Shown here in pieces: positions 40,817 to 57,939 of a stretch of 64,000 nt of DNA (position 1 is its first letter; each line of letters starts with the position of its first letter). The stretch is from assembly GCA_021769035.1 (NCBI GenBank), contig JAETTP010000004.1, forward strand, positions 10 through 64,009. The letters are read 5' to 3'. A program made the position numbers and the translations under genes. Under the pieces are notes generated by a model, which searched no databases, had not been told where the DNA came from, and saw only the letters and a list, made by a program, of their open reading frames with translations. The stretch comes from Bacillota bacterium (GTDB lineage Bacteria; Bacillota; Dehalobacteriia; UBA4068; UBA4997).

Positions 40817-42031
40817 ATGCAAATTGAATCACTAAACATTAAAAATTATCGTGTTTTTCATAATGTATCCGTTGACAACCTGCCACAAATGGCAGTTTTT
40901 ATGGGACAGAATGGTGTTGGTAAAACAACTTTTTTTGATGTGTTTGGCTTTCTAAATGATTGTTTAAGCAGTAATGTCCGCTCAGCTTTAGCTAAACGTG
41001 GTGGTTATAACGAAGTAATATCTAGAGATCAAAACGAGGATATGCATTTTGAAATTAAATTTCGCCCATCACCTGACGAACCTATAATTACCTATGAACT
41101 TACAATCGGTTTAAATGAAGCTGCAGCACCAGTTGTAAAAAAAGAGGTAATGAGATTTCGCCGTGGACAGCATGGAGCACCTTGGAAAATCCTAGATTTT
41201 GCTTATGGCGAAGGCGTAGCGGCAGATGGCAGCTTGCAATCCTATGAAACCGTACAAATGGCAACTCGTAAACGTCAAAAAGTTGCCGCACCTGATATAT
41301 TAGCAATCAAGGGATTGGGACAATTTGAAGATTTTCCTGCGGTTGCTTCATTACGACGCTTAATTGAAGATTGGTATGTATCAGATTTTCATATTGAAGG
41401 AGCGCGTGAACGCCAACAAGCTGATTATAGCGAATCTCTTTCCAGAACAGGTGACAATTTATCACAAGTTGCAAAATATCTTTACGATAATCATCGTGAT
41501 AGATTTGACTCTATTTTGCAAGCAATGAGAGAACGTGTTCCCGGTGTAAATAACGTTGAGGCTAAACTTACAGAAGACGGCTATGTAATCTTACGTTTTC
41601 AAGATGGGCGTTTCAAAAATCCTTTTTCGTCTAAGTTTGTTTCAGACGGAACAATTAAAATGTTCACATATTTAATATTACTCAGAGACCCCAACCCACA
41701 TGCTTTACTTTGCGTTGAGGAGCCGGAAAATCAACTGTATCCAGAGTTATTGCCACAACTGGCCGAGGAATTTCGGCATTATACAGACGTTGGAGGTCAG
41801 GTTTTTATTTCAACTCACTCACCAGATTTTTTAAATGCTATTCGTTTAGAAGAATTATACTGCTTAGTCAAAATTAATGGTTACACTGATATTATTTGCG
41901 CCTCTAAACTACCGCTTATTGTTTCATTATACAAAGAAGGAGATTTGTTAGGTGAGTTGTGGCAACAAGGTATTCTTTTAACTGAAGCTACAAAGGAAGC
42001 GCACAATTTACAAAAGGAGTCCTCGCAATGA
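40817..42031 (+). CDS. ABC-type ATPase (AAA_21/RecF-SbcC-like), putative defense-system ATPase
   Basis: Walker A GQNGVGKTT, ABC-signature-like SDGTIKM, Walker B/D-loop LLCVEEPE and H-loop STHSP. AT-rich codon usage (roughly 35% GC). Confidence 0.8.
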   Translation: MQIESLNIKNYRVFHNVSVDNLPQMAVFMGQNGVGKTTFFDVFGFLNDCLSSNVRSALAKRGGYNEVISRDQNEDMHFEIKFRPSPDEPIITYELTIGLNEAAAPVVKKEVMRFRRGQHGAPWKILDFAYGEGVAADGSLQSYETVQMATRKRQKVAAPDILAIKGLGQFEDFPAVASLRRLIEDWYVSDFHIEGARERQQADYSESLSRTGDNLSQVAKYLYDNHRDRFDSILQAMRERVPGVNNVEAKLTEDGYVILRFQDGRFKNPFSSKFVSDGTIKMFTYLILLRDPNPHALLCVEEPENQLYPELLPQLAEEFRHYTDVGGQVFISTHSPDFLNAIRLEELYCLVKINGYTDIICASKLPLIVSLYKEGDLLGELWQQGILLTEATKEAHNLQKESSQ

Positions 42032-42579
42032 AACTCATATTTCTTTTAGAGGAGTTTTCAATGAAATATTTACTTGATGAGCTGTTGCCCAAAATACTTC
42101 CTGACGATGTGGAGTTTCAAACAATACCACACACAGGTAAAAGTGCACTAGAAAAATCTATACCACGTAAATTGCGTGCTTGGAATGAACCCAATGATAT
42201 TCGATTTGTAATTTTACACGATCAAGATAACAAAGATTGTCGACAATTAAAAAAGAAACTCTTAGAGCTTTGCAATGTAACAGACCGACCTGTCCTCGTT
42301 AGAATTATCTGCCAAGAATTAGAATCCTGGTACTTTGGTGATATGAATGCTGTTGCACAAGCCTATGATAAACCTAATTTACGAAACATATCTAAAAAGA
42401 AAAACTATCGAGTTCCTGACAATATTCAATCACCAAAGGCAGAGTTACTTAAACTAATACCCAATCATCAACAAATTAGCGGCGCAAAAAAAATTGCACC
42501 ACTAATGTCAATAGAGAACAATTCATCTGAAAGTTTTCAATATTTCATATCTGGTATTCATAAATTGATTGGCCGATAA
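42028..42579 (+). CDS. DUF4276-like small protein with a TOPRIM-like E...DxD signature (putative nuclease partner)
   Basis: Its ATG overlaps the ATPase stop codon (ATGA). It has an N-terminal acidic LLEEF and a VILHDQDNKD (DxD) motif about 60 residues later, with no other known domain. Same AT-rich composition as the ATPase gene. Confidence 0.6.
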   Translation: MKLIFLLEEFSMKYLLDELLPKILPDDVEFQTIPHTGKSALEKSIPRKLRAWNEPNDIRFVILHDQDNKDCRQLKKKLLELCNVTDRPVLVRIICQELESWYFGDMNAVAQAYDKPNLRNISKKKNYRVPDNIQSPKAELLKLIPNHQQISGAKKIAPLMSIENNSSESFQYFISGIHKLIGR

Positions 42580-45617: not shown

Positions 45618-45974
45618 ATGGAAAAAGAACGTATCAATATTTCTATCGATCAGGAGGTTCGTGAAATGCTCAAAGAATTGGCCGAGGCCCGGCACACCAC
45701 AGTTTCCCAGCTTATCACCGACTGGACTGTGGATAAGTACAAGGAAATGAAAGCCTGGGAGCGGCTGGACAACATCTTCTCCATCCAAGGGGAACTGGAT
45801 TTGGCAGTTGACGAATATCTGGAGCAAAATCCCCAGGCCGACCCGGCGGAGGTGCGGCGCAGCCCTGACCTGCTGGCGGCAATCCTTAACGGTTATCGGA
45901 GCAGAATGGAAACCGAGCTGCTGGAGCAAGGACTGCTGCCGGTGAACGACCCCGACAACCCCGTCTTTAACTAA
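45618..45974 (+). CDS. Hypothetical protein with a possible N-terminal ribbon-helix-helix (CopG-like) fold
   Basis: MEKERINISIDQEVREMLKELAEARHTTVSQLI resembles an RHH beta-strand plus helix region. The rest is acidic and unassigned. Confidence 0.4.
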   Translation: MEKERINISIDQEVREMLKELAEARHTTVSQLITDWTVDKYKEMKAWERLDNIFSIQGELDLAVDEYLEQNPQADPAEVRRSPDLLAAILNGYRSRMETELLEQGLLPVNDPDNPVFN

Positions 45975-45997: not shown

Positions 45998-46034
45998 ACA
46001 GCGTCGGATTTATGATCCGGCGCTGTTTTGCTAT
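45998..46034. terminator. Bidirectional terminator hairpin between the convergent genes 45618..45974 and permease P1
   Basis: ACAGCGTCGGAT-TTATG-ATCCGGCGCTGT (12-bp stem with one mismatch) followed by TTTTG. Confidence 0.5.
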
Positions 46035-46047
46035 CTAATAAGCCTCT

Positions 46048-47274
46048 TTAATCATAGCGCAAAGCCTCAATCGGCTCCAGTTTGGCCGCCTGCCGGGCCG
46101 GATAAGTGCCGGAAAGCACGCCCACCAGCACGGAAACCGCCACCGCCGCCAAACTGGGCAAAATCGCGCCAATTAAATAATCAAACGAAACTTCCATAAC
46201 CAAAATCAGCAGGAAAAAGGCCCCAAAACCGACTATAACCCCAAGCCCGCCGCCGATTAAGCCGATGATAACCGCCTCCAGGGCAAACTGCCGCTGAATA
46301 TCCCGCCTGGTGGCCCCAAACGCCTTGCGGACGCCGATTTCCCTGGTGCGGGCCTGCACGCCGGCCAGCATTACGCTCATAATGCCCGCGCCGCCGATAA
46401 GCAGCACAATCACGGCCAAAAACACCTGCTGCACCGCGTCGCCGATAATAAAACCTTTTATCATTTCCGATGATTCCCCTAAGGAGATAATTGTCAGCCA
46501 CCAAACGGTTCTCCGCTCCCGGCCGGTTCGTTCCTTTAGCATATCCATCACCAGCGTTTGCGCTTCATCCATTTTATCTTTTCCATTAGCATATACATAA
46601 TATTTATCCTCATATATACCGGCATTATAAGGATCAAGCCTATCTCCAAGCATTTTTCTGGCGTTGGTGTAAGGAATATAAACCTCGCTATTCAGGGTTC
46701 GGGACTTTGGCACCTCGGCCAAAACCCCAACAACGGTGTAATTCTCGCCCCAAACTTTGATTTCCTTACCCAAAGCGTCGCCGCCCAGCAAATCGTTAGC
46801 AATGCTGTTGCCTATCACGCAAACTTTGCGTTCCCTATCTATATCCAAATCGGCAAAAAAACGCCCCTCCTGCAAATGCAGCACCGGCCGCATTTTAAGA
46901 TAGCTGTCGCCCACTCCATAAACCTGCGCTTCGTCAGCAGCCGCATCGCCATATCTCACGCCGCCCGGCAGGTCAAACTCAGAATACGGCGATATGGCGC
47001 TGATAACCTCTGGATTATCCGCCGCAACCTGCTCCATATCCTCCGGCGTAATCCTTACCGGATAATCCACGTCAGTGCTGACCCACATATCCAAAAGGCT
47101 GTCGGCATATTCCTCCTTTTCATTCTGAACGAACATCAAGGAAACATTGCAGCAGCTCAAAGCAAGGATAAAACCGGCAATGCCGATAAACATCCCCAAA
47201 ACAGCTTGCAGGCAACGCCACTTGTTGGCGGCCAAATTGCGCACCGCATTTTGCAGACTTTGTTTAATATCCAC
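46048..47274 (-). CDS. FtsX/MacB-type ABC transporter permease, paralog 1 of 7
   Basis: N-terminal TM helix, large extracytoplasmic MacB-like domain, three C-terminal TM helices and a GVRKAFGA motif. GTG start preceded by GGGAGG. Confidence 0.85.
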   Translation of the reverse strand: MDIKQSLQNAVRNLAANKWRCLQAVLGMFIGIAGFILALSCCNVSLMFVQNEKEEYADSLLDMWVSTDVDYPVRITPEDMEQVAADNPEVISAISPYSEFDLPGGVRYGDAAADEAQVYGVGDSYLKMRPVLHLQEGRFFADLDIDRERKVCVIGNSIANDLLGGDALGKEIKVWGENYTVVGVLAEVPKSRTLNSEVYIPYTNARKMLGDRLDPYNAGIYEDKYYVYANGKDKMDEAQTLVMDMLKERTGRERRTVWWLTIISLGESSEMIKGFIIGDAVQQVFLAVIVLLIGGAGIMSVMLAGVQARTREIGVRKAFGATRRDIQRQFALEAVIIGLIGGGLGVIVGFGAFFLLILVMEVSFDYLIGAILPSLAAVAVSVLVGVLSGTYPARQAAKLEPIEALRYD

Positions 47275-47298: not shown

Positions 47299-48504
47299 TT
47301 AATCGTAACGCAAAGCGTCAATCGGCTCCAGCCGGGCCGCCCTGCCCGCCGGCAAAAAGCCGAAAATTATCCCCAGACCGACGGAAACGCTGAAAGAAAG
47401 CAACACGGAATCCCCGGCCAACGCAAACGGCAGCTTCATAAAATGACAGGCCAAAAAGCTGGCCGCCACCCCCAGGCCCACGCCAAACAAGCCGCCCGTG
47501 GCGCTGGTGCAGGCCGCCTCAATTATAAATTGCAGCCGAATATCCCGCCGCCTGGCCCCAAAGGATTTGCGCACGCCAATTTCCTTAGTGCGCTCCGATA
47601 CGGAAATGGACATAATATTCATAATCCCCACGCCGCCCACCAGCAGGGCAATGCCGGCAATCATTGAAAGCACGGAAAGCATACTTCCTTGCATAGCAAT
47701 CATCATTTCCATCCGTTCCTTTTGGCTGGTGATTTGAAAGTAATCGTCCTTTTCATAACATTCCAGCAGCAGTTCCTCAATCGCCGCCACCGCGGCCTCG
47801 GAACATTCTCTAGTGCGAGAATTTAAAGTGTAGCTGCTCACAAAAGGCGTTTCCCCCAGCTGCAAAACGTTGGTGTAAGGGATATAAACCACATCATCCA
47901 CGCCGCCGGCCGCGTTTTGCAAATCAATATCGGAAAGCTCGTCCTGCGGGCCCAGCACGCCCACCACGGTGTAATTCCGCCCGCGGATTTTAAGGCTGCT
48001 GCCCAAGGCCCGGCCGCCCATAATCACCCGGTTCACGTAATGCCCCACCACGCAAACCTGGGCCTGCCGCTCCACGTCCATATACTGCAAAAACCGCCCC
48101 TCCGTCAGGTCCAACAGCTGCGTTTGCAGATAAGCCTCGCTCACGCCATAAATCTTCGTCCCACTGTGGCGCTCGTTGCCGTATTTAACGCCGCCGCCCA
48201 GCCCCACGCTGGGGCTTAAATCGCAGAGCAAATCCGGCTTGCTGCTCACCAACTCATACATATCCTCCACACTAATTTGGCGGGTGGAATCCCGATTGTA
48301 CAGACTGACGCTGATCATATTGGCCCCCAGCTTATCGAAACGGGCCTCCACCTTGGCCACCGTGCCCCGGCCGATAGTCATAATCGCAATAACCGCCGCC
48401 ACGCCGATAATTATGCCCAGCATAGTCAGCAGAGAGCGCACCTTGCGCGCCAGCAGGCTTTTAATGGCCAGCTTAAAACCTTGGCTAATATTCATTTGGT
48501 GCAC
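47299..48504 (-). CDS. FtsX/MacB-type ABC transporter permease, paralog 2
   Basis: Same architecture as paralog 1. C-terminal ...AARLEPIDALRYD. Confidence 0.85.
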   Translation of the reverse strand: MHQMNISQGFKLAIKSLLARKVRSLLTMLGIIIGVAAVIAIMTIGRGTVAKVEARFDKLGANMISVSLYNRDSTRQISVEDMYELVSSKPDLLCDLSPSVGLGGGVKYGNERHSGTKIYGVSEAYLQTQLLDLTEGRFLQYMDVERQAQVCVVGHYVNRVIMGGRALGSSLKIRGRNYTVVGVLGPQDELSDIDLQNAAGGVDDVVYIPYTNVLQLGETPFVSSYTLNSRTRECSEAAVAAIEELLLECYEKDDYFQITSQKERMEMMIAMQGSMLSVLSMIAGIALLVGGVGIMNIMSISVSERTKEIGVRKSFGARRRDIRLQFIIEAACTSATGGLFGVGLGVAASFLACHFMKLPFALAGDSVLLSFSVSVGLGIIFGFLPAGRAARLEPIDALRYD

Positions 48505-48530
48505 CTCCTGACTTATTTAATTAATCGCTG

Positions 48531-49772
48531 TCAGCCCTCGCTGATAGCCGCCACCGGCTCCAGCTTGGCCGCCTTGCCTGCCGGATAAGTGCCGAATATC
48601 ATACCCACGCCAACCGAAATCAAAGCTGTTATAACCAAGGGTAAAAAAGGAACCCCAAGCACATCTAACGGCAAATGTAAAACATCACAAACAATGTAAA
48701 TAATTGGCACGGCTAAAAAAATACCAACCACACAGCCAAGCATACTAATACAAACACTTTCACACAAAAATTGCTTTTGTATATCCTTGTTTGTTGCGCC
48801 GAATGCCTTACGAATACCAATCTCCTTGGTGCGCTCCTCAACCAAAGCTATCATCATATTCATAATACCGTTGCCACCCACCAGCAATATCAAAAAGGCA
48901 AACAAGGCAAAAGGAGCAAACACCATTGACAAACCTTGGCTCATCTGTTTTCCCTGCCAATCTAACGATGTTATATTGGCCGCGTCGGTTTCATTCAGAC
49001 AACTGTCCAACATAGACCTGATTGCAGCATGGGCTTCAACCGTATTTTCTGCGCTTGTAACGCCAACAAAATATGAGCTGAAGTAAGACCCAATGCCGCT
49101 AAATGTTTCTGGACGAAAATCTGCTCCAGTTATTTTTAATGCACAAGTGGACGGAAGCAAAATTGTATCATTCCAATTTTCAGCGTCTAAATCAATTTCT
49201 GCCAACACACCAATAACAGAAAAATTAGTTCCGGCTATTTTTAGGCTTTGCCCTAAAGCATTACCACCCATAATTTTATTTGCAATATTACTGCCTATAA
49301 CACACACATTCTGCTCGCGTTCAATATCCATATTTTGTAAAAACCGGCCTTGTTTAACCTGCAAAACATGGATAATTTTATAAAAATCCTCATTAATCCC
49401 CTCAATATTTATATTGCTGTTATTATATAGCTTATTATCATACACAAAACCGTCAACATAATCAGATACATATATCATCGGGCTTACAGCGTAAATCAGA
49501 TCTGGATTTTCCTTAATCAAATTCTGCCAATCCTCGTCCGTTAGCGTATCACGTGAAAAGGTGTCCATTCTTTCAAAAACGCTCACCCATATCACACCCG
49601 AATTATAATTTGCAACCTGCATTTTAATTTGATTTAATAAGCCTTGGGCAACGCAAACCACAGTAAAAACAGATACTAAACCAATAACAAAAATTAATGT
49701 TGATTGCAGGGTTCGCATTTTGTTTTTTAATAAGCTTTGAAAAGATAAACGAAAAAGCTGCTTAATATCCAT
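48531..49772 (-). CDS. FtsX/MacB-type ABC transporter permease, paralog 3 (AT-rich body with a GC-rich 3-prime end)
   Basis: Same architecture. The body is roughly 40% GC, while the last 70 nt or so are identical to the 3-prime end of paralog 4. Confidence 0.85.
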   Translation of the reverse strand: MDIKQLFRLSFQSLLKNKMRTLQSTLIFVIGLVSVFTVVCVAQGLLNQIKMQVANYNSGVIWVSVFERMDTFSRDTLTDEDWQNLIKENPDLIYAVSPMIYVSDYVDGFVYDNKLYNNSNINIEGINEDFYKIIHVLQVKQGRFLQNMDIEREQNVCVIGSNIANKIMGGNALGQSLKIAGTNFSVIGVLAEIDLDAENWNDTILLPSTCALKITGADFRPETFSGIGSYFSSYFVGVTSAENTVEAHAAIRSMLDSCLNETDAANITSLDWQGKQMSQGLSMVFAPFALFAFLILLVGGNGIMNMMIALVEERTKEIGIRKAFGATNKDIQKQFLCESVCISMLGCVVGIFLAVPIIYIVCDVLHLPLDVLGVPFLPLVITALISVGVGMIFGTYPAGKAAKLEPVAAISEG

Positions 49773-49805
49773 AATTTCTATTCCTTTTTCCGATCTTAAT
49801 CGCTG

Positions 49806-51086
49806 TCAGCCCTCGCTGATAGCCGCCACCGGCTCCAGCTTGGCCGCCTTGCCTGCCGGATAAAGACCAAAAATTACGCCAACCAGCATTGCTGCAACCG
49901 CCGCCAGCAAAGCCGGCAACAGCAAAGACGGCAAATTCAACAAATCAGGGCTGAAAAGCAGCTGGCCGGCATAACCAATCGGCACGCTGCCCATAAAACG
50001 GCAAACCAGCCAACCGGCAGGCAGGCCCAACGCCACGCCCAGCAGCGCGCCCAGGCCGCTGGTGCAAACGGCCTCCAGCAAAAACTGCCGGCGGATTTCC
50101 CCAGCCGTGGCCCCAAAAGCCCGCCGGACGCCAATTTCCCGCTTGCGCTCCTGCACGGCGGCCAGCATCACGTTCATAATCCCAACGCCGCCCACCAGCA
50201 GCACAAACCCGGAAAGGCCAAGCAATTTGCCCACCAGACCAAAAACGCACTCCCGGTCATATTTTTGCGAGGTGCGATTGCTTAGGGAAAACAGCAGGGT
50301 GGTTTCCCCGTGCGGCCGGCCGCTGACCTCCGCCAGCAGCGCGCGCACTGTGTCGCGTCCATTGATGATGTTATCCGTGCTGTTCAGGTTCACGTAGTAA
50401 ATATCCAGATAAAATTCCTCGTTTTCCCGCAGCGGCACCAAAATTTCCCCGGTCAGCTGTTTGGCGCTGGTGTAAGGAATATAGGTGCGATAATTGCCCT
50501 CCTCCAAATCAGGCTTAATTTCGCCAAAAACACCGATTACCGTAAAATTCTGCCCGCAGATTTTCACCGTTTGGCCCAGGGCCTGCTCATAATCCTGACA
50601 GCCCAAAAGCTCCGCAGCCACCGCGCTGCCCACCACGCACACATTTTGGCGGCGGCTGACGTCCAGCGGCTGCAAAAAACGCCCCGCCGCCACCTGGCAG
50701 GCCGGCTTCATACTCAAAAACTGCTCGCTAACCCCTTGCACCGTGGCCTTTTCCAAGGTTTCCCCGTTATAGCGCAGGTTGGGCTCCTCCACAAAAACCA
50801 GGGGCGATACCGCCGTTATGTACTCGGAGCTTTCCACCAGCCCCTCCATATCCTCCACCGTCACCCGCGGCGATTTCTCTGCACTCACGTAAACGCCCAT
50901 ATACATCAGGCTGGGGCTGTAGGCGGAATAAAACTTGCCCACGCCTTGCAGCAAATTGCTGCCCATACATAAAATAACCACCGCAGCCGCCACGCCAATC
51001 ACCATTCCCAGCGTGGTTTGGGCAAAACGTAGCTTGTTGGCCCGCAAATTGCGCCAGGCCATCGACAAACCCTGCCGAACATCCAT
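49806..51086 (-). CDS. FtsX/MacB-type ABC transporter permease, paralog 4
   Basis: Start reassigned to the ATG at 51084-51086 (MDVRQG...), which has a GGAGGTG RBS and removes the overlap with paralog 5. Confidence 0.85.
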   Translation of the reverse strand: MDVRQGLSMAWRNLRANKLRFAQTTLGMVIGVAAAVVILCMGSNLLQGVGKFYSAYSPSLMYMGVYVSAEKSPRVTVEDMEGLVESSEYITAVSPLVFVEEPNLRYNGETLEKATVQGVSEQFLSMKPACQVAAGRFLQPLDVSRRQNVCVVGSAVAAELLGCQDYEQALGQTVKICGQNFTVIGVFGEIKPDLEEGNYRTYIPYTSAKQLTGEILVPLRENEEFYLDIYYVNLNSTDNIINGRDTVRALLAEVSGRPHGETTLLFSLSNRTSQKYDRECVFGLVGKLLGLSGFVLLVGGVGIMNVMLAAVQERKREIGVRRAFGATAGEIRRQFLLEAVCTSGLGALLGVALGLPAGWLVCRFMGSVPIGYAGQLLFSPDLLNLPSLLLPALLAAVAAMLVGVIFGLYPAGKAAKLEPVAAISEG

Positions 51087-51111
51087 AATTAACACCTCCA
51101 TAAATTTAAGC

Positions 51112-52383
51112 TCATAAACCCTCGTTGATAGCAACCACCGGCTCTATTTTGGCCGCCTGCCGGGCCGGATAGGTGCCGAATATCATACCCACGCCAACCG
51201 AAACGGCCAGGGCCAGCAGAATCGGCCAGGCACTCAAGGCAATATCCAAGTATGCCGTAGGATAAGTTACGCCCGTAGCGTCAAAACTTATACTATCAAA
51301 AAGCACCGGAACAGCAAAGCTGGCCACCTCGCCCAGAACAACGCCAACCACACCGCCAAGCAAGCTTGTAATTATCGCCTCTAACATAAACTGGCGCTGA
51401 ATATCCTTATTAGTAGCGCCAAATGCCTTGCGAATCCCAATCTCTTTGGTGCGCTCCCGTACACTGGCCAGCATTACGTTCATAATGCCCACGCCGCCAA
51501 CCAGCAAAACACCACTAGCCCCCAACATCAGGTTAAAACCCAAGGAATAAGTGCCGCCTTTACCGGCCTCATAAAAAAACAATTCGCTGGCGCAGGTTAA
51601 AAACCACTTATCAATATTAGCCTCCTCACCCACTATCGCCGACACCTCCTGCTCTACGGCCCTGCGGGCGTTGCCGATATTATCCACGCCGTTGGCAAAA
51701 AGCACAAAACGGTTTGAATAGTAATCGCCTAGATAACCCTTTCCTATCCTCTCACCGGTTATTTTAAGGGCGTTGGTATAAGGCAGATATATATGCTCTT
51801 CATTATTTGAGCGTCCTGATTTTTCCATTATGCCAACCACTGTACAATTTACACCCCAAATTTTCAGCGTTTTGCCCAAAGCGTCGCCGCCCATAAGCTC
51901 ATTGGCAATATCGCTGCTCACCACGCAAACGTTTTGTTCCCGGCGGCAATCCATATACTGGATAAAACGCCCCTCGGCCAGTTTTTCATTAGGCGTAGCG
52001 TTTAGATAATTTTCATTTACGCCAACAAAGATAGCCTCGTCAAAACATTTATCGCCATACCAGATATTGCCACCCAAAGTATGGTCATATACAAAAGGCG
52101 AAACCGCCACAATGGTCTCCGGATATTTGGCGGCAATTTCGTCCATATCCTCAATGGTTATCGGCCTGTTAAGCTCCAGTCTGGTAGCAATATACATATG
52201 CATAACGCTGAAACTTTCCGGGTTCCAAATCTCTTCCATCAGATTGAGTAATACTTGACAGATATTGCCGGTTGCCACAATCGCCGCCACGCCAATCATC
52301 ATTGCCAGCGTAGTCTGGGCAAAGCGCATTTTGTTGACGCACAAATTCCTGATTGCTGCAAAAAAGCTTTGTTTAATATCCAC
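51112..52383 (-). CDS. FtsX/MacB-type ABC transporter permease, paralog 5
   Basis: Same architecture. GTG start with an AAGGAGGG RBS. Confidence 0.85.
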   Translation of the reverse strand: MDIKQSFFAAIRNLCVNKMRFAQTTLAMMIGVAAIVATGNICQVLLNLMEEIWNPESFSVMHMYIATRLELNRPITIEDMDEIAAKYPETIVAVSPFVYDHTLGGNIWYGDKCFDEAIFVGVNENYLNATPNEKLAEGRFIQYMDCRREQNVCVVSSDIANELMGGDALGKTLKIWGVNCTVVGIMEKSGRSNNEEHIYLPYTNALKITGERIGKGYLGDYYSNRFVLFANGVDNIGNARRAVEQEVSAIVGEEANIDKWFLTCASELFFYEAGKGGTYSLGFNLMLGASGVLLVGGVGIMNVMLASVRERTKEIGIRKAFGATNKDIQRQFMLEAIITSLLGGVVGVVLGEVASFAVPVLFDSISFDATGVTYPTAYLDIALSAWPILLALAVSVGVGMIFGTYPARQAAKIEPVVAINEGL

Positions 52384-52418
52384 AAAACACCCTCCTTATT
52401 AACTTCTCTTAATCGCTA

Positions 52419-53648
52419 TCAGCTTTCGTTGATAGCCGCCACCGGCTCCAGCTTGGCCGCCTGCTGAGCCGGATAGGTGCCAAAGATTACGCCAACCGAC
52501 ACCGAAAGCCCCAAAGCCAGCAAAATCGGCCAGGCTGTTATGTGAATATCTAACTCAGACACAGGAAAACCAAAAACACTAAAGTCAAGCAGCCAAGGCG
52601 CGGCAAAGCTTAACATCACACCAAAAACCAGGCCTAAAAAACCGCCAAACAGGCTGGTTATCAAGGCCTCCAGCCTAAATTGCCAGTGGATATTTTTATT
52701 TGTCGCGCCAAAGGCCTTGCGTATGCCAATTTCTTTGGTGCGCACCTCCACGCTGGCTATCATCACATTCATAACGCCCACGCCGCCCAGCAGCAGCACA
52801 AGCAAAGCCAGCAGAAAATACTTGTAAACCTGACTGACGGCATAACCAATGACATCTTCCTTAACAAATTGATAACTTAAAAACGTCATAGACCAATTAT
52901 CCTTACCCAGCAGTTTATCTATCTCCTCCTGGATCAAATTACGCACGTTACCGATATTTTCCATACCGTTAGCCTTAACCTCAAAACGGTCAGCATAATA
53001 TTTATTTTCCTGATAACCGGTGCGAATAACATCGCCAACCATTTTGCGCGCGCAGGTATACGGCAGAAATATCAGCCCCGCTGTGTTATCGTCATCAACC
53101 CCCACCACCGTAAAATTATATCCGTCAATATTCAGGGTTTTACCCAAGGCATCGCCGCCCAGCAGTTTATCGGCAATGTCCGTGCCAACCACGCACACGT
53201 TTTGCTCCCGCCGGCAATCCATATACTGAATAAAACGGCCCTCCTTGAGCTTTACGCAGTGCATATCAGCATACTGTTCATTTACGCCAAAGTAATTGCC
53301 TTTTTTGTAAATTTTATCACCGTATCGCACATTACAATAGATTGAATCAGCAACAATATACGGTGAAACTCCTAAAATAATATCGGGGTTAGCTTCGGCA
53401 ATTTTTTCCAAATCCTCAATAGTCGCCCGTTTGTTTGAATCAACCCGGCTGCTGATATATATATTGTTATTGCTCATAATGTCCGGCGTCCAGGAAGTTT
53501 CCACCTGCTGAATCAACACCTGACAAGTATTGCCAAGAACGATAAACGCCGCCACGGCCACAATCAGAGCAAACATAGCCTGTATTGAGCGCCGCTTGTT
53601 GGCATACAAATTGCGCGCCGCATTCAAAAAACTCTGTTTTATATCCAC
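52419..53648 (-). CDS. FtsX/MacB-type ABC transporter permease, paralog 6
   Basis: Same architecture. Its 3-prime end and downstream intergenic region are identical to those of paralog 7. Confidence 0.85.
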   Translation of the reverse strand: MDIKQSFLNAARNLYANKRRSIQAMFALIVAVAAFIVLGNTCQVLIQQVETSWTPDIMSNNNIYISSRVDSNKRATIEDLEKIAEANPDIILGVSPYIVADSIYCNVRYGDKIYKKGNYFGVNEQYADMHCVKLKEGRFIQYMDCRREQNVCVVGTDIADKLLGGDALGKTLNIDGYNFTVVGVDDDNTAGLIFLPYTCARKMVGDVIRTGYQENKYYADRFEVKANGMENIGNVRNLIQEEIDKLLGKDNWSMTFLSYQFVKEDVIGYAVSQVYKYFLLALLVLLLGGVGVMNVMIASVEVRTKEIGIRKAFGATNKNIHWQFRLEALITSLFGGFLGLVFGVMLSFAAPWLLDFSVFGFPVSELDIHITAWPILLALGLSVSVGVIFGTYPAQQAAKLEPVAAINES

Positions 53649-53685
53649 AAAAAACGCCCTCCTTATTAACTTCTCTTAATCGCTA

Positions 53686-54912
53686 TCAGCTTTCGTTGAT
53701 AGCCGCCACCGGCTCCAGCTTGGCCGCCTGTTTGGCGGGATAAGTGCCGGAAAGCAGGCCGACCAGTATCGTAATCGCAAAGGCAGCCAACATCGGCCAA
53801 ACAGTACCTGTTATATAAGTTAAAGGCGAATGGCTTGTAAGAAAAATCCCAAGAATTATGCCAAAGCCAACTGCCACCCCCAGCAGGCCGCCAATCAAAC
53901 CGGTAATCACCGCCTCCAGCATAAACTGACGCTTAATATCATTGGCAGTGGCTCCAAAGGCTTTCCGAATGCCAATTTCCTTAGTGCGGGCCTGCACACT
54001 GGCCAGCATAACGTTCATAATGCCCACGCCGCCCACCAACAGCGCCACCACAGAAAACAGCAGGTACGTACACATAGTTTGATAAACATCTATTTTGGAC
54101 ATTTCCTCAAAATAGCGGTAAGAGGCTGAAATATAATACCAATCCCGGTTGATCTGCCCCAAACGCTCCGCCAGCATATCCGTCGCGGCCAACCGAGCGT
54201 TGGCGATATTTTCAACGCCATTAGCTTTAATATAATAGCTATCTACGTAAAATTCACCCTGCAAATCGTACCTTGGCGTGGTAACCTCACCCTGCACGCG
54301 CTTCATAATCGTATACGGCAGCATAATGCAGCGATTGTAATCCGCAGCGCCCATATCCAACACGCCAATCACCTTGTAATCCGCCCCCCAAAGGCGCAGC
54401 GTTTGGCCTAAAATTTCATTGTTATTATTATAATTTAACGCATAGCCAACCACGCACACCCTTTGCTCCCGGTCAATCTCCATAGGTTTAAAAAAACGTC
54501 CCGCAGCCAGCCGCAAACTGCTCATCGTGCCCAGATAATTTTCATCAACCCCAAAAACGTTGTACTCCGCAGCTTCTCCCGCGGCCCCTTTAAGGGACAC
54601 CGGCAGGCCGGAATTAATATGCGGGCTCACCGCCTTAATAAACTCCGGGTTATCCGCAGCCAGTTGGCGCATATCCTCAATGCCTACCCTTTTGGTGTTA
54701 TTTATATTTGTCATCACCATAAAGTGCATAGTGTCCGGGCTGTTATATTGCTTATAGACGAACTCCACCACGTCAAAGGTTGCCGGTATAATATTCAGCA
54801 TTACAATAACGCTTGCCGTCCCCATAACAATCCCCAACACCGCCTGCAAACAACGCCACTTGTTGGCAAATAAATTGCGCATAGCCGTCCTAAACGTCTG
54901 CTTAATATCCAC
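53686..54912 (-). CDS. FtsX/MacB-type ABC transporter permease, paralog 7
   Basis: Same architecture. GTG start, 32 nt downstream of the ATPase gene. Confidence 0.85.
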   Translation of the reverse strand: MDIKQTFRTAMRNLFANKWRCLQAVLGIVMGTASVIVMLNIIPATFDVVEFVYKQYNSPDTMHFMVMTNINNTKRVGIEDMRQLAADNPEFIKAVSPHINSGLPVSLKGAAGEAAEYNVFGVDENYLGTMSSLRLAAGRFFKPMEIDREQRVCVVGYALNYNNNNEILGQTLRLWGADYKVIGVLDMGAADYNRCIMLPYTIMKRVQGEVTTPRYDLQGEFYVDSYYIKANGVENIANARLAATDMLAERLGQINRDWYYISASYRYFEEMSKIDVYQTMCTYLLFSVVALLVGGVGIMNVMLASVQARTKEIGIRKAFGATANDIKRQFMLEAVITGLIGGLLGVAVGFGIILGIFLTSHSPLTYITGTVWPMLAAFAITILVGLLSGTYPAKQAAKLEPVAAINES

Positions 54913-54944: not shown

Positions 54945-55679
54945 TCAGCCCTCCGCCGCCACCACGGCCTCCGCGCCGTCGGCCGGCCCGTCGTAGACGA
55001 TTTTACCGTCCTCCAGCCGCACAATCCGCTGCGCCTGCCGGGCAATGGCATTGTCGTGCGTAATCAGCACCACGGTGCGCCCCTCAGCGTTCAGCTGCTG
55101 CAAATAGCCCAGCACCTCCCGGCCAGTTTGGCTGTCCAGCGCGCCGGTGGGCTCGTCCGCCAAAATCACCGCCGGCTCCCCGGCCAAAGCCCTGGCAATC
55201 GCCACCCGCTGCTGCTGGCCGCCGGAAAGCTGATTGGGCACGTTGGCCGCCTTGTCCGCCAACCCCACCTTTTCCAGAAGCTGCAAGGAGCGCTTGTGCC
55301 GCTCCCCAGCCGGCATACCGGCGTATAACATCGCCAACTCCACATTCTCGCAAAGGTTCAGCTTGGGTATCAGGTTATACTGCTGGAAAATGAAGCCCAG
55401 CGTTTTGTTGCGCAACTTAGCCTTAGCGTTATCGTCCATTGCCAAAACGTCCTCACCGGCCAGATGATAGCTGCCGGAGGTGGGCACGTCCAGGCAGCCG
55501 ATTATGTTCATGCAAGTGGATTTGCCGCTGCCGCTGGCCCCCACAATCGCCACAAACTCCCCCCGGCAGATTTCCAGCGTCACCCCGTCCAGGGCGTGCA
55601 CCGCAGTTTCCCCCGTTTGGTAAATCTTAAAAACCTCCTGCAATTTAATCAACGCTTCGCCATTTTTTACTTCACTCAT
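54945..55679 (-). CDS. ABC transporter ATP-binding protein (MacB/LolD-type nucleotide-binding domain)
   Basis: Walker [10 protein letters not shown], signature [15 protein letters not shown] and Walker [12 protein letters not shown]. Confidence 0.9.
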
Positions 55680-55702: not shown

Positions 55703-57214
55703 TCAGCTGCCGCTCCCATTGGGCACGGCAATCTTTTCGCCCTCCCGAACGCCGGAGATGACCTCCACATAGTAATCGTCGTTCAGGCCCAGCTCCAGCT
55801 GCCGCCAGCAGTAGCCGGGCAAATCGCTGGCCTCGCCATTGCTGCCCTCGACCAGCAACATATTTCCCCGGCTGATTGCATTCATCGGCACCAGCAGCAC
55901 GTCCTCCGCCTGCTGCAAAACCACCTCGGCATTAATATTCATACCCGGCAGCAACGCGCCAAACTCATCTAAAGTTACGGTAATCGGGTAAGTGGTTACG
56001 CCGTTGCTGCTGCTGCCCTTAATGCTGATTTTGCTGACGCGGCCGGTAAACTCCTGGCCGTCCAGCGCGTCCGCCACCACCTGCACCGGCTGGCCCACCT
56101 GCATCAGGCCAATGTCCAGCTCGTCAACATTCATCACAAACTCCAATTTACTCATATCGTAAATAACCGCCATTTCACTGGCATTGTTGTTGCTGTCTAT
56201 GGTGTCGCCCTGGTTGAACTTTTTTTCAATCACGGTGCCGGCAATCGGCGATTTAATGCTGTAATCCTCCAGCGCCGCCCGGGCGTTTTCCAGCTCCAGC
56301 CGGGCCCGTTGCAGCTCGTTTTCCACGCTTTCATCACTCAGCCGCACCAACGCCTGCCCGGCCCGCACATTGTCGCCCTCGGCCACCAAAATTTCCGCCA
56401 CGTCGCCGCTGCTTTTGGCCAAAACCTGTTCGCTGTAGGCATATTCCAGCAGGCCGCTGCGCACGCCGGCAAAGCCGCCGGCCTCCGCCTGTGCCCAATC
56501 GCCCTCCTGCAAGCCGCCGGGATTGCTCAGGCTAATCGTCACCTTATGGGTAAGCGCGCCGGCGCTCACCTGCTCCACCGGGGAAACCTCCAGGATTTGC
56601 CCCTCAAGGCGCTCGCCCGTTTTTTCCACAATCACCGCCGCCGTCTGGCCGGCTTGCAGCTGCTGGGCCTCCTCCGTTTTGAAAGGGGCCTCCAGCAGCA
56701 TTTTTTCCCTATCACGCAGGTAAACAAGCTGTGTGCCAACGCTCACATTGTCGCCAACCGCGCAGTGGATTTTCACCACCTGCCCGTCCGCCGGGGCCGT
56801 CACGTTCAGCTTGGCCGCGTCCGCCTGGGCCTCCGCCAAATTCAGCTGGGCCAATGTGTAGTTATTTTGGGCCCAGCCCGCATCAATCTGATAGAGCAGC
56901 TGGCCGGCCTCAATCACATCGCCCTCGCTGAAAGGGGCGCTTAAAACATCCCCCGTCACCAGGGCTTTCACGGTGTAGGAATTCACCGGCTGCACCGTGC
57001 CCACCCCCTCCAGGGTGGAGATAATGCTGCCCCGCTCCACCAGCTGATAGCGATAGGCCGGGGCCTCTCCCTGCTGCTCCGCCTGGCTTTGGCTGAAAAA
57101 CCACCAGCCGCCGGCTGCGGCCGCCGCCAGCAGCAGAATTAGCAGCCAAAGCCAGACTTTGCTGCCAGTTTTTGTGCCCACTGATCCCCGATCAGCGCTT
57201 TTGCCTGTAAACAT
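55703..57214 (-). CDS. HlyD/MacA-type periplasmic adaptor (membrane fusion protein)
   Basis: N-terminal TM anchor, coiled-coil, and lipoyl/barrel-like segments typical of membrane fusion proteins. Confidence 0.85.
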   Translation of the reverse strand: MFTGKSADRGSVGTKTGSKVWLWLLILLLAAAAAGGWWFFSQSQAEQQGEAPAYRYQLVERGSIISTLEGVGTVQPVNSYTVKALVTGDVLSAPFSEGDVIEAGQLLYQIDAGWAQNNYTLAQLNLAEAQADAAKLNVTAPADGQVVKIHCAVGDNVSVGTQLVYLRDREKMLLEAPFKTEEAQQLQAGQTAAVIVEKTGERLEGQILEVSPVEQVSAGALTHKVTISLSNPGGLQEGDWAQAEAGGFAGVRSGLLEYAYSEQVLAKSSGDVAEILVAEGDNVRAGQALVRLSDESVENELQRARLELENARAALEDYSIKSPIAGTVIEKKFNQGDTIDSNNNASEMAVIYDMSKLEFVMNVDELDIGLMQVGQPVQVVADALDGQEFTGRVSKISIKGSSSNGVTTYPITVTLDEFGALLPGMNINAEVVLQQAEDVLLVPMNAISRGNMLLVEGSNGEASDLPGYCWRQLELGLNDDYYVEVISGVREGEKIAVPNGSGS

Positions 57215-57231
57215 TTGTTTACACCTCCACT

Positions 57232-57939
57232 TTAATCAGATCCCCGCTCCTCCTGCTTGGCCTCTTTGCGCAGATTTTCCGGTTTTTCCGTGTTCTCCAA
57301 CAACTCGTCAATAGCCTGAAAATACATATGATCCAAGGTTGAGCTAAAATAAAGCAACGGTAAAAAAATACTCAATAAAACAAAAAACATTACAGTGTCC
57401 AAAATAAAGCTTTCAAATAGCAGAACCGCACCGATAAACAGCAAAAAACGCCCTTTGTTCAGATAGATAATCCCGCCAAGCGCCACCGCTATTATCAAAA
57501 TAGCCAGCAAAACTAAGTGGGTCGACATCTCATAATAACCATCCAGCAGGTGTTCGTTCAGGTTTTTTAACACATTGAGGTTAAAAAAGCCGGCGATAAG
57601 TATAGCCAGAACCGTAAGGCTCAAACCACGAGAAAGCCAGCGGGTTTCCCTAATCTCCCGGATTTTTTCAATCAGCTGCATTGTTTTCAGCAGCTGCGCG
57701 TCCGCCTCCCGTTTATATTCCTCCTCCGCAAAGCGGTCCCCAGCCATCAGCTCATTAACGCTGACGCCCAGCACCTCCGCCAGGCTGGGGATAATCGCCA
57801 GCTCCGGCATATAATTGCCGTTTTCCCAACGGGAAACCGTTTTGTTGGTAACGCCCAGCATCTCCCCCAGCTGGGCCTGCGTCCAGCCCTTTTGCTTGCG
57901 CAACTCCGCCACAAATTTACCAATCTTAACCTGATCCAT
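57232..57939 (-). CDS. Membrane-anchored XRE-family HTH regulator (BcrR-like architecture)
   Basis: N-terminal HTH_3 (KGWTQAQLGEMLGVTNKTVSRWENG) followed by three or four predicted TM helices. It is the first gene of the transporter operon. Confidence 0.8.
   Translation of the reverse strand: MDQVKIGKFVAELRKQKGWTQAQLGEMLGVTNKTVSRWENGNYMPELAIIPSLAEVLGVSVNELMAGDRFAEEEYKREADAQLLKTMQLIEKIREIRETRWLSRGLSLTVLAILIAGFFNLNVLKNLNEHLLDGYYEMSTHLVLLAILIIAVALGGIIYLNKGRFLLFIGAVLLFESFILDTVMFFVLLSIFLPLLYFSSTLDHMYFQAIDELLENTEKPENLRKEAKQEERGSD

Follow-up and report, generated by a model that had tools for sequence, protein, structure and literature searches.

Why do the genes of a permease array end in identical DNA when their coding bodies are so far diverged? 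The question is raised by a 64,000-nucleotide stretch of the genome of a Bacillota bacterium (GenBank assembly GCA_021769035.1, contig JAETTP010000004.1), referred to here as the window. It contains a minus-strand gene block running from 57939 to 46048, in which an adaptor gene and an ATP-binding cassette (ABC) ATPase gene precede seven tandem permease genes. The permeases are numbered P1 to P7 and the array lies 3' of the ATPase. The locus is a chromosomal operon of a gut Peptococcaceae bacterium and encodes a MacAB/YknXYZ-like pump with seven alternative MacB-type permeases. Gene conversion in the gene tails, together with unequal crossover in the same tails, has very probably turned this operon into a strain-variable cassette array with one ATPase and one adaptor.

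Identical tracts at the permease gene ends

The initial annotation described an identity of about 69 nt between the ends of P3 and P4 and of about 75 nt between the ends of P6 and P7. Both identities are real, and their exact extents are 68 and 74 nt (Table 1). The repeat sequences were quoted correctly, but their coordinates were 1-4 nt off. A further tract, missed at that stage, is shared by P3 and P5 and is 31 nt long. Since it adjoins the 68 nt that are identical to P4, the 3' end of P3 is a mosaic, in part P5-like and in part P4-like. One 31-nt block is identical in P3, P4, P6 and P7, where the number of matches expected by chance is 0. The tail stretch encodes the end of the fourth transmembrane helix (TM4) and a cytoplasmic C-terminal tail of the form G-x-Y-P-A-x-x-A-A-K-L-E-P-V-A-A-I.

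The permease bodies are near saturation between paralogs. The codon alignment gives identities of 33-53% for amino acids, 47-63% for nucleotides and 31-48% for third positions, so the earlier statement that the divergence of the copies far exceeds that of their tails is borne out. A GENECONV-style permutation was run over 1,040 polymorphic alignment columns with 2,000 permutations. The runs of concordant polymorphic sites are 29 for P3/P4, 21 for P3/P5 and 21 for P6/P7 against a permuted maximum of 19, and each of the three tracts lies above all 2,000 permutations (global p<0.0005).

Where the tails encode identical residues, the same codon is used in 18 of 18 cases for P3/P4 and in 15 of 17 for P6/P7. 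The most conserved 45-codon block of the genes (LLVGGVGIMNVML...ERTKEIGIRKAFGAT) serves as an internal control. It has 27-36 identical residues per pair, of which just 37-55% are encoded by the same codon, and its longest exact run is 10-23 nt. Because codon identity is low in this block and the tail identity extends into non-coding DNA, protein constraint does not explain the tracts.

Strain-level cassette variants

An exact-protein look-up of the P3 and ATPase of the window returned no record. Relatives were therefore reached by homology search with P3, by contig look-ups and by a scan of species-representative genomes. The outcome held up by the initial annotation against recombination, an array that is invariant across strains, was checked and the opposite is found: units vary, and their breakpoints are at the tails. 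There are five array forms among contigs 98-100% identical to the window. In L010, L011 and L012, P4 runs into P2 through a single 68-nt repeat and the flanks are 98.3-99.9% identical. L010 and L012 are MEGAHIT contigs with a k119 prefix, and L011, L118 and L013-L017 are Logan contigs. The P6 unit is missing in L118 (Table 1). Both of the repeat pairs first noticed therefore coincide exactly with presence/absence polymorphisms of a unit.

Other variants also break in the tails. L011 carries a hybrid gene with the body of P6 and the tail of P5. L117 keeps P6, P5 and P4 in the order of the window; the tail of its P6, however, is another mosaic, made of P5-like and P3/P4-like pieces. At the far end of the array, the sequence of L013-L017 (8 contigs) is 99.6% identical to the window as far as CTGGAGCC (left breakpoint 46073) and returns to it at 46025; in place of 46026-46072 they have an AAINCD* tail, a spacer and a 424-aa permease of an eighth type. 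The window form of the P1 end is present in at least 11 contigs from several studies, with 100% identity in those checked.

The sister species, called species A below, has three haplotypes (Table 1) in many independent metagenome-assembled genomes (MAGs) and metagenomes. Their flanks are 99.3-99.5% identical, and each junction that lacks a unit keeps one tail. The proposal that the junctions serve as recombination substrates is thus supported by near-identical contigs that lack exactly the P3 or the P6 unit and by more tail-bounded variants in two species. As for the proposed shuffling, presence and absence of units, tail swaps and one hybrid gene are seen directly, while reordering is only suggested, by the gene order of a second related species (species B). 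The 28-nt tail common to four paralogs of the window has no match in the JGI metagenome contigs that were scanned.

Permease types and tails in related species

Species A (L001-L006, L018, L098-L107) has an adaptor 81% identical to that of the window and the same flanking genes. In species B (L007, L008, L019) the adaptor is 78% identical. Each permease type of the window has an ortholog at 57-83% identity, compared with the 33-53% shared by paralogs. The permease types are therefore old orthogroups common to several species. The gene order is P4-(419)-P3-X-P2 in species A, where 419 is a cassette present in some strains, and P1-P3-P4-P6-P7-adaptor-ATPase-P2-P5 in species B. In L007 (8761-19727) and L008, the adaptor and ATPase have P1-P3-P4-P6-P7 upstream and P2-P5 downstream, all in one orientation. 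Since the order is permuted and the orientation is kept, inversion cannot be the cause.

The tails follow the genome instead of the type. In the window, six of the seven copies carry AAR-CTG-GAG (Lys-Leu), and P3-P7 end with GCTATCARCGARRGN before the stop, P5 with one extra codon. All seven copies of species B, P2 included, carry A(A/G)A-ATG-GAR (Lys/Arg-Met), and five of these tails (the P3, P4, P6, P7 and P1 orthologs) end GCNATTAAY...GATTAA. The tails of L001 carry AAGTTG, and in species A a stretch of 43-45 nt is identical among the tails of P4, 419 and P3. Tail identity, measured over 54 nt, is 0.81 between different types within a genome and 0.74 between orthologs from different genomes. 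The bodies behave in the opposite way (0.65 within and 0.73 between genomes), although these two values were obtained with a gap-friendly global aligner and are too high when set against the codon alignment, so that only the direction of the contrast is used. Tails that group by genome and bodies that group by type, as in the three species, are the mark of concerted evolution confined to the tail. The tail single-nucleotide polymorphisms (SNPs) GCC/GCT, CCA/CCG and AGC/AGT recur in the tails of different cassettes across strains of the sister species. Both conversion and co-evolution are consistent with the replacement of Lys-Leu-Glu by Lys-Met-Glu, which affects all seven copies in species B.

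The claim that the boundaries were homogenized by recombination is therefore upheld by synonymous and non-coding identity, by the excess over permutation, by tails that group by genome and by shared tail SNPs.

The sequence (C/T)AGCGATTAA is found right after the stop codons of P3, P4, P6 and P7 (48521-48530, 49796-49805, 52409-52418 and 53676-53685). It corresponds to an old gene end (...AACAGCGATTAA, encoding N-S-D-stop) that is still in use in the sister species. The lineage of the window has acquired about 10 nt and a new upstream TGA, and the old terminus is a fossil in the spacer. The derived state is common to non-orthologous copies, which implies that conversion spread it.

P2 is set apart from the other permeases. 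Its orthologs keep the ending ...EPIDALRYD* in all species examined, and it lies beside the adaptor and ATPase in every related locus. P2 looks like the core permease and the others like accessory cassettes. Accessory permeases are 57-71% identical in amino acids to those of species B; P2, P4, the adaptor and the ATPase are 78-91% identical between species. Judged by these identities, the accessory cassettes may evolve faster.

Several loci of the relatives have additional genes. The sister species has a 208-aa open reading frame (ORF) with an FtsX domain only between the regulator and the adaptor (L001 5731-6357, also L018 9349-9975 and L098 3588-4214), possibly a truncated permease or else a small subunit of its own. 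This ORF has no equivalent in the window, where the gap between regulator and adaptor is 17 nt. The 419 cassette has its own small ORF of 45 hydrophobic aa (MLKNKKLIIVILLLIISGAFLWWFVSW...) in the spacer ahead of the permease (L018 13609-13746). Two further MAGs, one comprising L020, L022 and L023 (S11_Bin2) and the other L021, L024 and L027, have 2-3 separate adaptor-ATPase-P2 loci, each with 1-2 accessory permeases upstream of the adaptor. With several loci per related genome, exchange of cassettes between loci is conceivable. A multi-pass membrane protein of about 210 aa is encoded between the ATPase and P2 in both L021 and L022.

Proposed mechanism

In the mechanism considered most probable, interlocus gene conversion would repeatedly homogenize the last 60-100 nt of the permease genes and the short spacer that follows. 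Such conversion would yield the 68-, 74- and 31-nt tracts as well as the GC-rich tail on the AT-rich P3. The homogenized tails would then offer in-frame crossover points for unequal homologous recombination. One crossover would delete one unit of spacer and gene body (1.27-1.43 kb) and leave the remaining genes intact; presumably it could also add or move a unit. The mechanism is presumably of the RecA type, and each event may have been a loss or a gain. Uniform tails may also be favored functionally, with one ATPase serving all copies.

Several points weigh against this mechanism. Neither a reciprocal duplication product nor a recent duplicate of a cassette body is present in any locus examined. 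P3 at 90% identity or more occurs on the window contig only, and its recent re-insertion is as compatible with the perfect flanking repeats as deletion elsewhere. In favor of deletion, the P4-P3 adjacency and spacer are present in species A too, which argues that P3 is ancestral and was deleted in the other strains. L021 (12264-13701) and L022, which are 94.5% identical here, differ by a P4-type cassette that is not bounded by tails. The boundaries of that cassette are the stop codon of the ATPase and an AT-rich, promoter-like spacer that looks duplicated. The comparison sequences are all short-read metagenome or MAG contigs, and the form without P6 comes from one Logan contig. Selection for fit with the single ATPase could add to the uniformity of the tails at the protein level. 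The strong heterogeneity of the bodies in base composition is not accounted for by tail recombination.

Base composition and alternative explanations

The composition described in the initial annotation holds: P3 has an AT-rich body with a GC-rich tail, and P5 and P6 are AT-richer than their neighbors. The GC content of P3 is 0.39, and its GC content at third codon positions (GC3) is 0.37. Its body, from 48620, has a GC content of 0.372, the 68-nt tail 0.632 and the preceding spacer 0.304; the GC3 is 0.83 in the tail and 0.35 in the body. By comparison, GC and GC3 are 0.57 and 0.69 in P4 and 0.555 and 0.69 in P2. P5 (GC 0.48) and P6 (GC 0.46) both have a GC3 of 0.52. The GC3 is 0.57-0.59 in P1 and P7 and 0.75-0.78 in the ATPase and adaptor, and the genes of the window have a mean GC3 of 0.65 with a standard deviation of 0.11. 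The body composition is to some extent a property of the type across species: in the window, species A and species B respectively, the GC3 is 0.37, 0.29 and 0.51 for P3 and 0.69, 0.45 and 0.65 for P4. Accessory cassettes are AT-richer than the core in a low-GC relative as well.

Tail GC3 (0.50-0.83) equals or exceeds body GC3 in 17 of the 19 cassettes from the window, L098 and L007/L008. The gap is largest in the AT-rich cassettes, with 0.27-0.35 in the body and 0.67-0.83 in the tail. Either GC-biased gene conversion or donor copies rich in GC could lie behind the high tail GC3. For the heterogeneity of the bodies, possible causes are an ancient foreign origin, weaker selection with AT-biased mutation, or GC-biased conversion that lifts the tails alone. 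The earlier suggestion that the copies differ in origin or age stands in part. The types are old, as orthogroups shared across species, while different origins are not established.

Among the alternatives to conversion and crossover, a foreign origin is the least improbable. The AT-rich cassettes (P3 and, to a lesser degree, P5, P6, P7 and P1) would have come from lower-GC donors and been integrated by tail recombination, with the repeats as scars; in the strong form, P3 was recently inserted or re-inserted in the strain of the window. The low GC3 of P3 against the mean of the window points in this direction, as does the AT shift of its amino acids (FYMINK 0.32, GARP 0.20). The AT-rich block begins exactly past the upstream repeat and includes the spacer, the junction without P3 is found in three samples, and strains of the sister species differ in having or lacking a second AT-rich cassette, 419 (GC 0.37). 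However, the P3 ortholog of the sister species is at the same position, has a homologous upstream spacer and a GC content of 0.37. Since the AT-richness of P3 is shared with this ortholog, P3 is no recent import. P3 and its ortholog are 78% identical in amino acids and the neighbors P4 and P2 are 83% identical to theirs, so the composition is old. No closer donor was found, the next matches having 41% identity or less, and the AT-richer accessory cassettes of the low-GC relative fit weaker selection or mutation bias equally well. Overall, a foreign-origin mosaic seems rather unlikely. We also rejected a recent import of P3 from species A: its similarity to the ortholog there does not exceed that of its neighbors to theirs.

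A dedicated element at the junctions is highly improbable. It would be either the site of a site-specific recombinase, as in an integron or shufflon, or a regulatory structured RNA or terminator. The cassettes do share one orientation and have a repeated junction between them, the stop codons of the P6 and P7 tails lie within a 7-bp hairpin, and the P3/P4 junctions fold somewhat better than shuffled sequences (z = -2.35). But neither the operon nor the genes within about 5 kb of it on both sides encode a recombinase domain. The crossover positions vary along the tail, as homology-driven exchange predicts. The integron or shufflon reading was rejected on these two grounds. There are no attC-type inverted repeats at the junctions, which are coding sequence with inconsistent folds, mostly no better than shuffles. 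Folds differ by tail type, and those of P6 (z = -0.27) and P5 do not reach significance. The scan of the junctions against Rfam at E≤1 gave three chance-level matches and none at E<0.2, and there is no terminator-like site at any junction of the array. A conserved structured element or stop-codon hairpin was rejected as the reason for conservation because the six junctions that were folded gave differing structures, with z from +1.3 to -2.35.

It is also extremely improbable that the repeats or the contigs lacking a cassette are assembly artefacts, produced by collapsed or mis-joined repeats. Concern is justified in that all assemblies are short-read, many Logan contigs end inside a repeat, and the Logan k-mers, which we take to be 31 nt long, are shorter than the 74-nt repeat. 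Collapse, on the other hand, cannot create identities of 68-74 nt inside unique flanks, and the same tail sequences recur in independent assemblies. The junction without P3 is found in two MEGAHIT contigs, whose k119 prefix we take to indicate a final k of 119, which exceeds the length of the 68-nt repeat. The P6/P5 hybrid crosses over at 11-14 shared nt, so its junction k-mers must occur in the reads. The three haplotypes of the sister species are present in many NCBI, JGI and ENA assemblies of up to 99 kb.

The least probable explanation dispenses with recombination and relies on purifying selection on the C-terminal peptide with codon bias, or on a conserved translational-coupling signal: the tail peptide, which is highly conserved, can be aligned with the conserved C-terminus of MacB, and the fraction of identical codons is raised in the tails of all pairs (0.75-1.0), but the still more conserved internal block lacks such runs and such codon identity, the identity continues through the non-coding spacer, the ends of the tracts vary by pair with P3 as a P5/P4 mosaic, the tails agree within a genome and differ between species, the codons of P3 are AT-rich everywhere but in the tail, and the strain variants break exactly in the tails.

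Operon organization and neighboring genes

The features of the locus are listed in Table 1. All seven permeases have MacB_PCD (85-130 bits, cutoff 27) and FtsX (73-84 bits, cutoff 25.5) matches in Pfam. The spacers of the array are 22-37 nt long, each with a ribosome-binding site (RBS). Hydropathy suggests TM1 at about residues 20-50, a polar external domain of about 220 aa, 2-3 hydrophobic blocks from about 270 to about 410, taken as TM2-4, and a cytoplasmic tail of about 20 aa; the topology is from a crude Kyte-Doolittle scan in which the final two helices fuse into one block in P1 and P3.

The best matches of P7 among solved structures are MacB proteins. Residues 4-406 of P7 align with residues 276-669 of 671 in 5GKO (E = 1.5e-33), and the alignment extends to the C-terminal ...PAKNAAKLDPVAAL. 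A review (PMC5985334) locates a minor coupling helix at the C-terminus of MacB, in contact with the nucleotide-binding domain (NBD). The ATPase (244 aa) has MacB residues 3-233 as its top NCBIfam match, and the ATPase and permeases map onto the two halves of MacB. Scores against the E. coli MacB equivalog (NF007826) are 130-287 bits, compared with a cutoff of 966, and the NBD and permease are separate genes. The orthologs of the adaptor match BSH_YknX and Beta-barrel_YknX. The single ATPase would serve all of the permeases, and the variable repertoire presumably handles different substrates, for example antimicrobial peptides.

Table 1. Positions in the window of repeat tracts, variable units and genes of the permease operon, with array haplotypes of the sister species
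Feature	Position	Strand	Remarks
68-nt exact repeat, P3-end copy	48521..48588	-	55 coding nt, stop and 10 nt downstream; identical to the P4-end copy
68-nt exact repeat, P4-end copy	49796..49863	-	55 coding nt, stop and 10 nt downstream
74-nt exact repeat, P6-end copy	52390..52463	-	42 coding nt, stop and 29-nt intergenic region including P5 RBS; identical to the P7-end copy
74-nt exact repeat, P7-end copy	53657..53730	-	42 coding nt, stop and 29-nt intergenic region including P6 RBS
31-nt tract in P3 identical to P5	48589..48619	-	Directly upstream (gene sense) of the 68-nt repeat
31-nt tract, P5 partner	51173..51203	-	Identical to P3 48589-48619
P3 unit, 1,275 bp	48589..49863	-	One repeat copy, intergenic region and P3 body; absent from three independent contigs of this species
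P6 unit, 1,267 bp	52464..53730	-	Absent from L118, where P7 is joined to P5 via a single 74-nt repeat
P5 unit, ~1,304 bp	51167..52470	-	Absent from L011; crossover in shared GGCACCTATCC(GGC), 52471-52481 / 51167-51177
P1-end variable segment, 47 nt	46026..46072	-	RYD-type P1 end and 22 nt downstream; replaced in L013-L017
Species A haplotype P4-419-P3-X-P2			Many MAGs
Species A haplotype P4-P3-X-P2			L001-L006; 1,427-bp AT-rich 419 unit absent
Species A haplotype P4-419-X-P2			L100, L107; 1,266-bp P3 unit absent; crossover in TATCCAGCCCA
XRE-type HTH regulator	57232..57939	-	Pfam HTH_3/HTH_31/HTH_19; first gene of block; synteny kept in L001/L098
HlyD/YknX-type membrane-fusion adaptor	55703..57214	-	Pfam HlyD_3, HlyD_D23; NCBIfam RND_mfp 187.5 bits, cutoff 94.9
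ABC ATPase (NBD), MacB-NBD/LolD/FtsE class	54945..55679	-	Pfam ABC_tran; sole ATPase in operon
Permease P7 (MacB_PCD + FtsX)	53686..54912	-	Pfam; aligns with solved MacB through the C-terminus
Permease P6 (MacB_PCD + FtsX)	52419..53648	-	Pfam; unit absent in L118
Permease P5 (MacB_PCD + FtsX)	51112..52383	-	Pfam; unit absent in L011 (P6-body/P5-tail hybrid instead)
Permease P4 (MacB_PCD + FtsX)	49806..51086	-	Start set at ATG; 426 aa, equals P0015
Permease P3, AT-rich cassette (MacB_PCD + FtsX)	48531..49772	-	Pfam; absent in L010, L011, L012
Permease P2, likely core permease (MacB_PCD + FtsX)	47299..48495	-	Pfam; canonical ...EPIDALRYD* tail
Permease P1 (MacB_PCD + FtsX)	46048..47274	-	Pfam; last gene of the array in this strain

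The flanking genes are ordinary chromosomal ones, with ThiH/ThiE-like, RmuC and SLH deacetylase genes upstream and MCP and FIST genes downstream. The close relatives are Peptococcaceae and "Firmicutes" MAGs, one of which has a name from a mouse-gut catalogue (MGBC). An ORF of 118 aa that lacks Pfam matches (45618-45974, plus strand) lies between the MCP gene and the array and is called at the equivalent place in the strains of L013 and L108, too. Farther away, at 40817-42579 (plus strand), are two strongly AT-rich genes (GC 0.34-0.38, GC3 0.25). Their products, an AAA_15/AAA_21 ATPase and a DUF4276 protein, match HEC-01, a candidate defence system in PADLOC (E = 1e-163 and 9e-61), and the pair is 100% identical in another strain, L108. 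The two genes are probably a horizontally acquired defence pair.

Significance and comparison with known systems

A pump like MacAB or YknXYZ, concerted evolution and unequal crossover are each known, but their combination was not found described. The literature searched has no relevant description of multi-permease MacB/FtsX arrays or of gene conversion in tandem ABC permeases. The array may, tentatively, be a homology-driven counterpart of the integron, in which the tail that contacts the ATPase doubles as a portable, in-frame recombination site. If so, any other tail could take up a cassette after its excision, and cassettes could be lost or pass between arrays and strains; one related genome has three such adaptor-ATPase-P2 loci. 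The gut Peptococcaceae would then have exporters or immunity pumps whose repertoire changes fast, directed for example at bacteriocins and host peptides and driven by one ATPase and one adaptor, and homogenization would be selected because it keeps the cassettes compatible with the ATPase and competent for recombination. On the reading favored here, the array is a compact natural case of modular gene-array evolution without a dedicated recombinase, from which strain-specific phenotypes of transport or resistance are expected in gut Firmicutes. In short-read assemblies and MAGs the tails will often be break points or be under-represented, and pangenome tools may mis-call the cassette content.

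MacB-type pumps are usually described with one permease per ATPase, or two in LolCDE. YknXYZ of Bacillus and the MacAB-like pumps of Gram-positive bacteria resemble the present system in that an HlyD/YknX adaptor, a separate ATPase and a MacB_PCD permease are encoded in one operon. Such systems have been described as protection against peptide toxins (PMC5985334). Unlike YknXYZ with its one permease, the array has seven diverged permeases (eight in some strains) per ATPase and adaptor. YknXYZ also has YknW; the window has no extra gene between the regulator and the adaptor, and no search for YknW homology was made. The MacB proteins of E. coli, A. baumannii and A. actinomycetemcomitans (PDB 5NIK, 5GKO/5WS4 and 5LIL) have a similar C-terminal tail, ...PAxxAAKLxPVAAL. 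They differ in that the NBD is a separate gene here, the scores are far below the equivalog cutoff (130-287 vs 966 bits) and no outer-membrane partner is evident.

LolCDE is a type VII ABC system whose two paralogous permeases, LolC and LolE, work with a single ATPase species, and there are weak lolCE matches at the locus in NCBIfam. It is similar in combining a mixed permease set with one ATPase, but has two fixed paralogs, a defined lipoprotein function and no variable array. We know of no report of tail homogenization in LolCDE. In tufA/tufB and in rRNA operons, conversion makes gene copies of one genome resemble each other more than their orthologs in other genomes. The same kind of concerted evolution is seen here, limited to about 60-100 nt of the 3' end with the spacer, and coupled to the loss or gain of units.

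Integron arrays share with this locus cassettes in the same orientation, a repeated junction, presence or absence of single cassettes and an order that is permuted between species. Unlike integrons, the array has no integrase and no attC-type hairpin, its "site" is coding sequence, and the crossover position varies within that sequence; the exchange is driven by homology and is not site-specific. In Rhs/CDI orphan modules, pilE/pilS and vls, variable modules are exchanged through a conserved coding stretch, from silent copies into one expressed gene. The present array differs from these systems in that complete genes, apparently co-transcribed, are either removed or retained.

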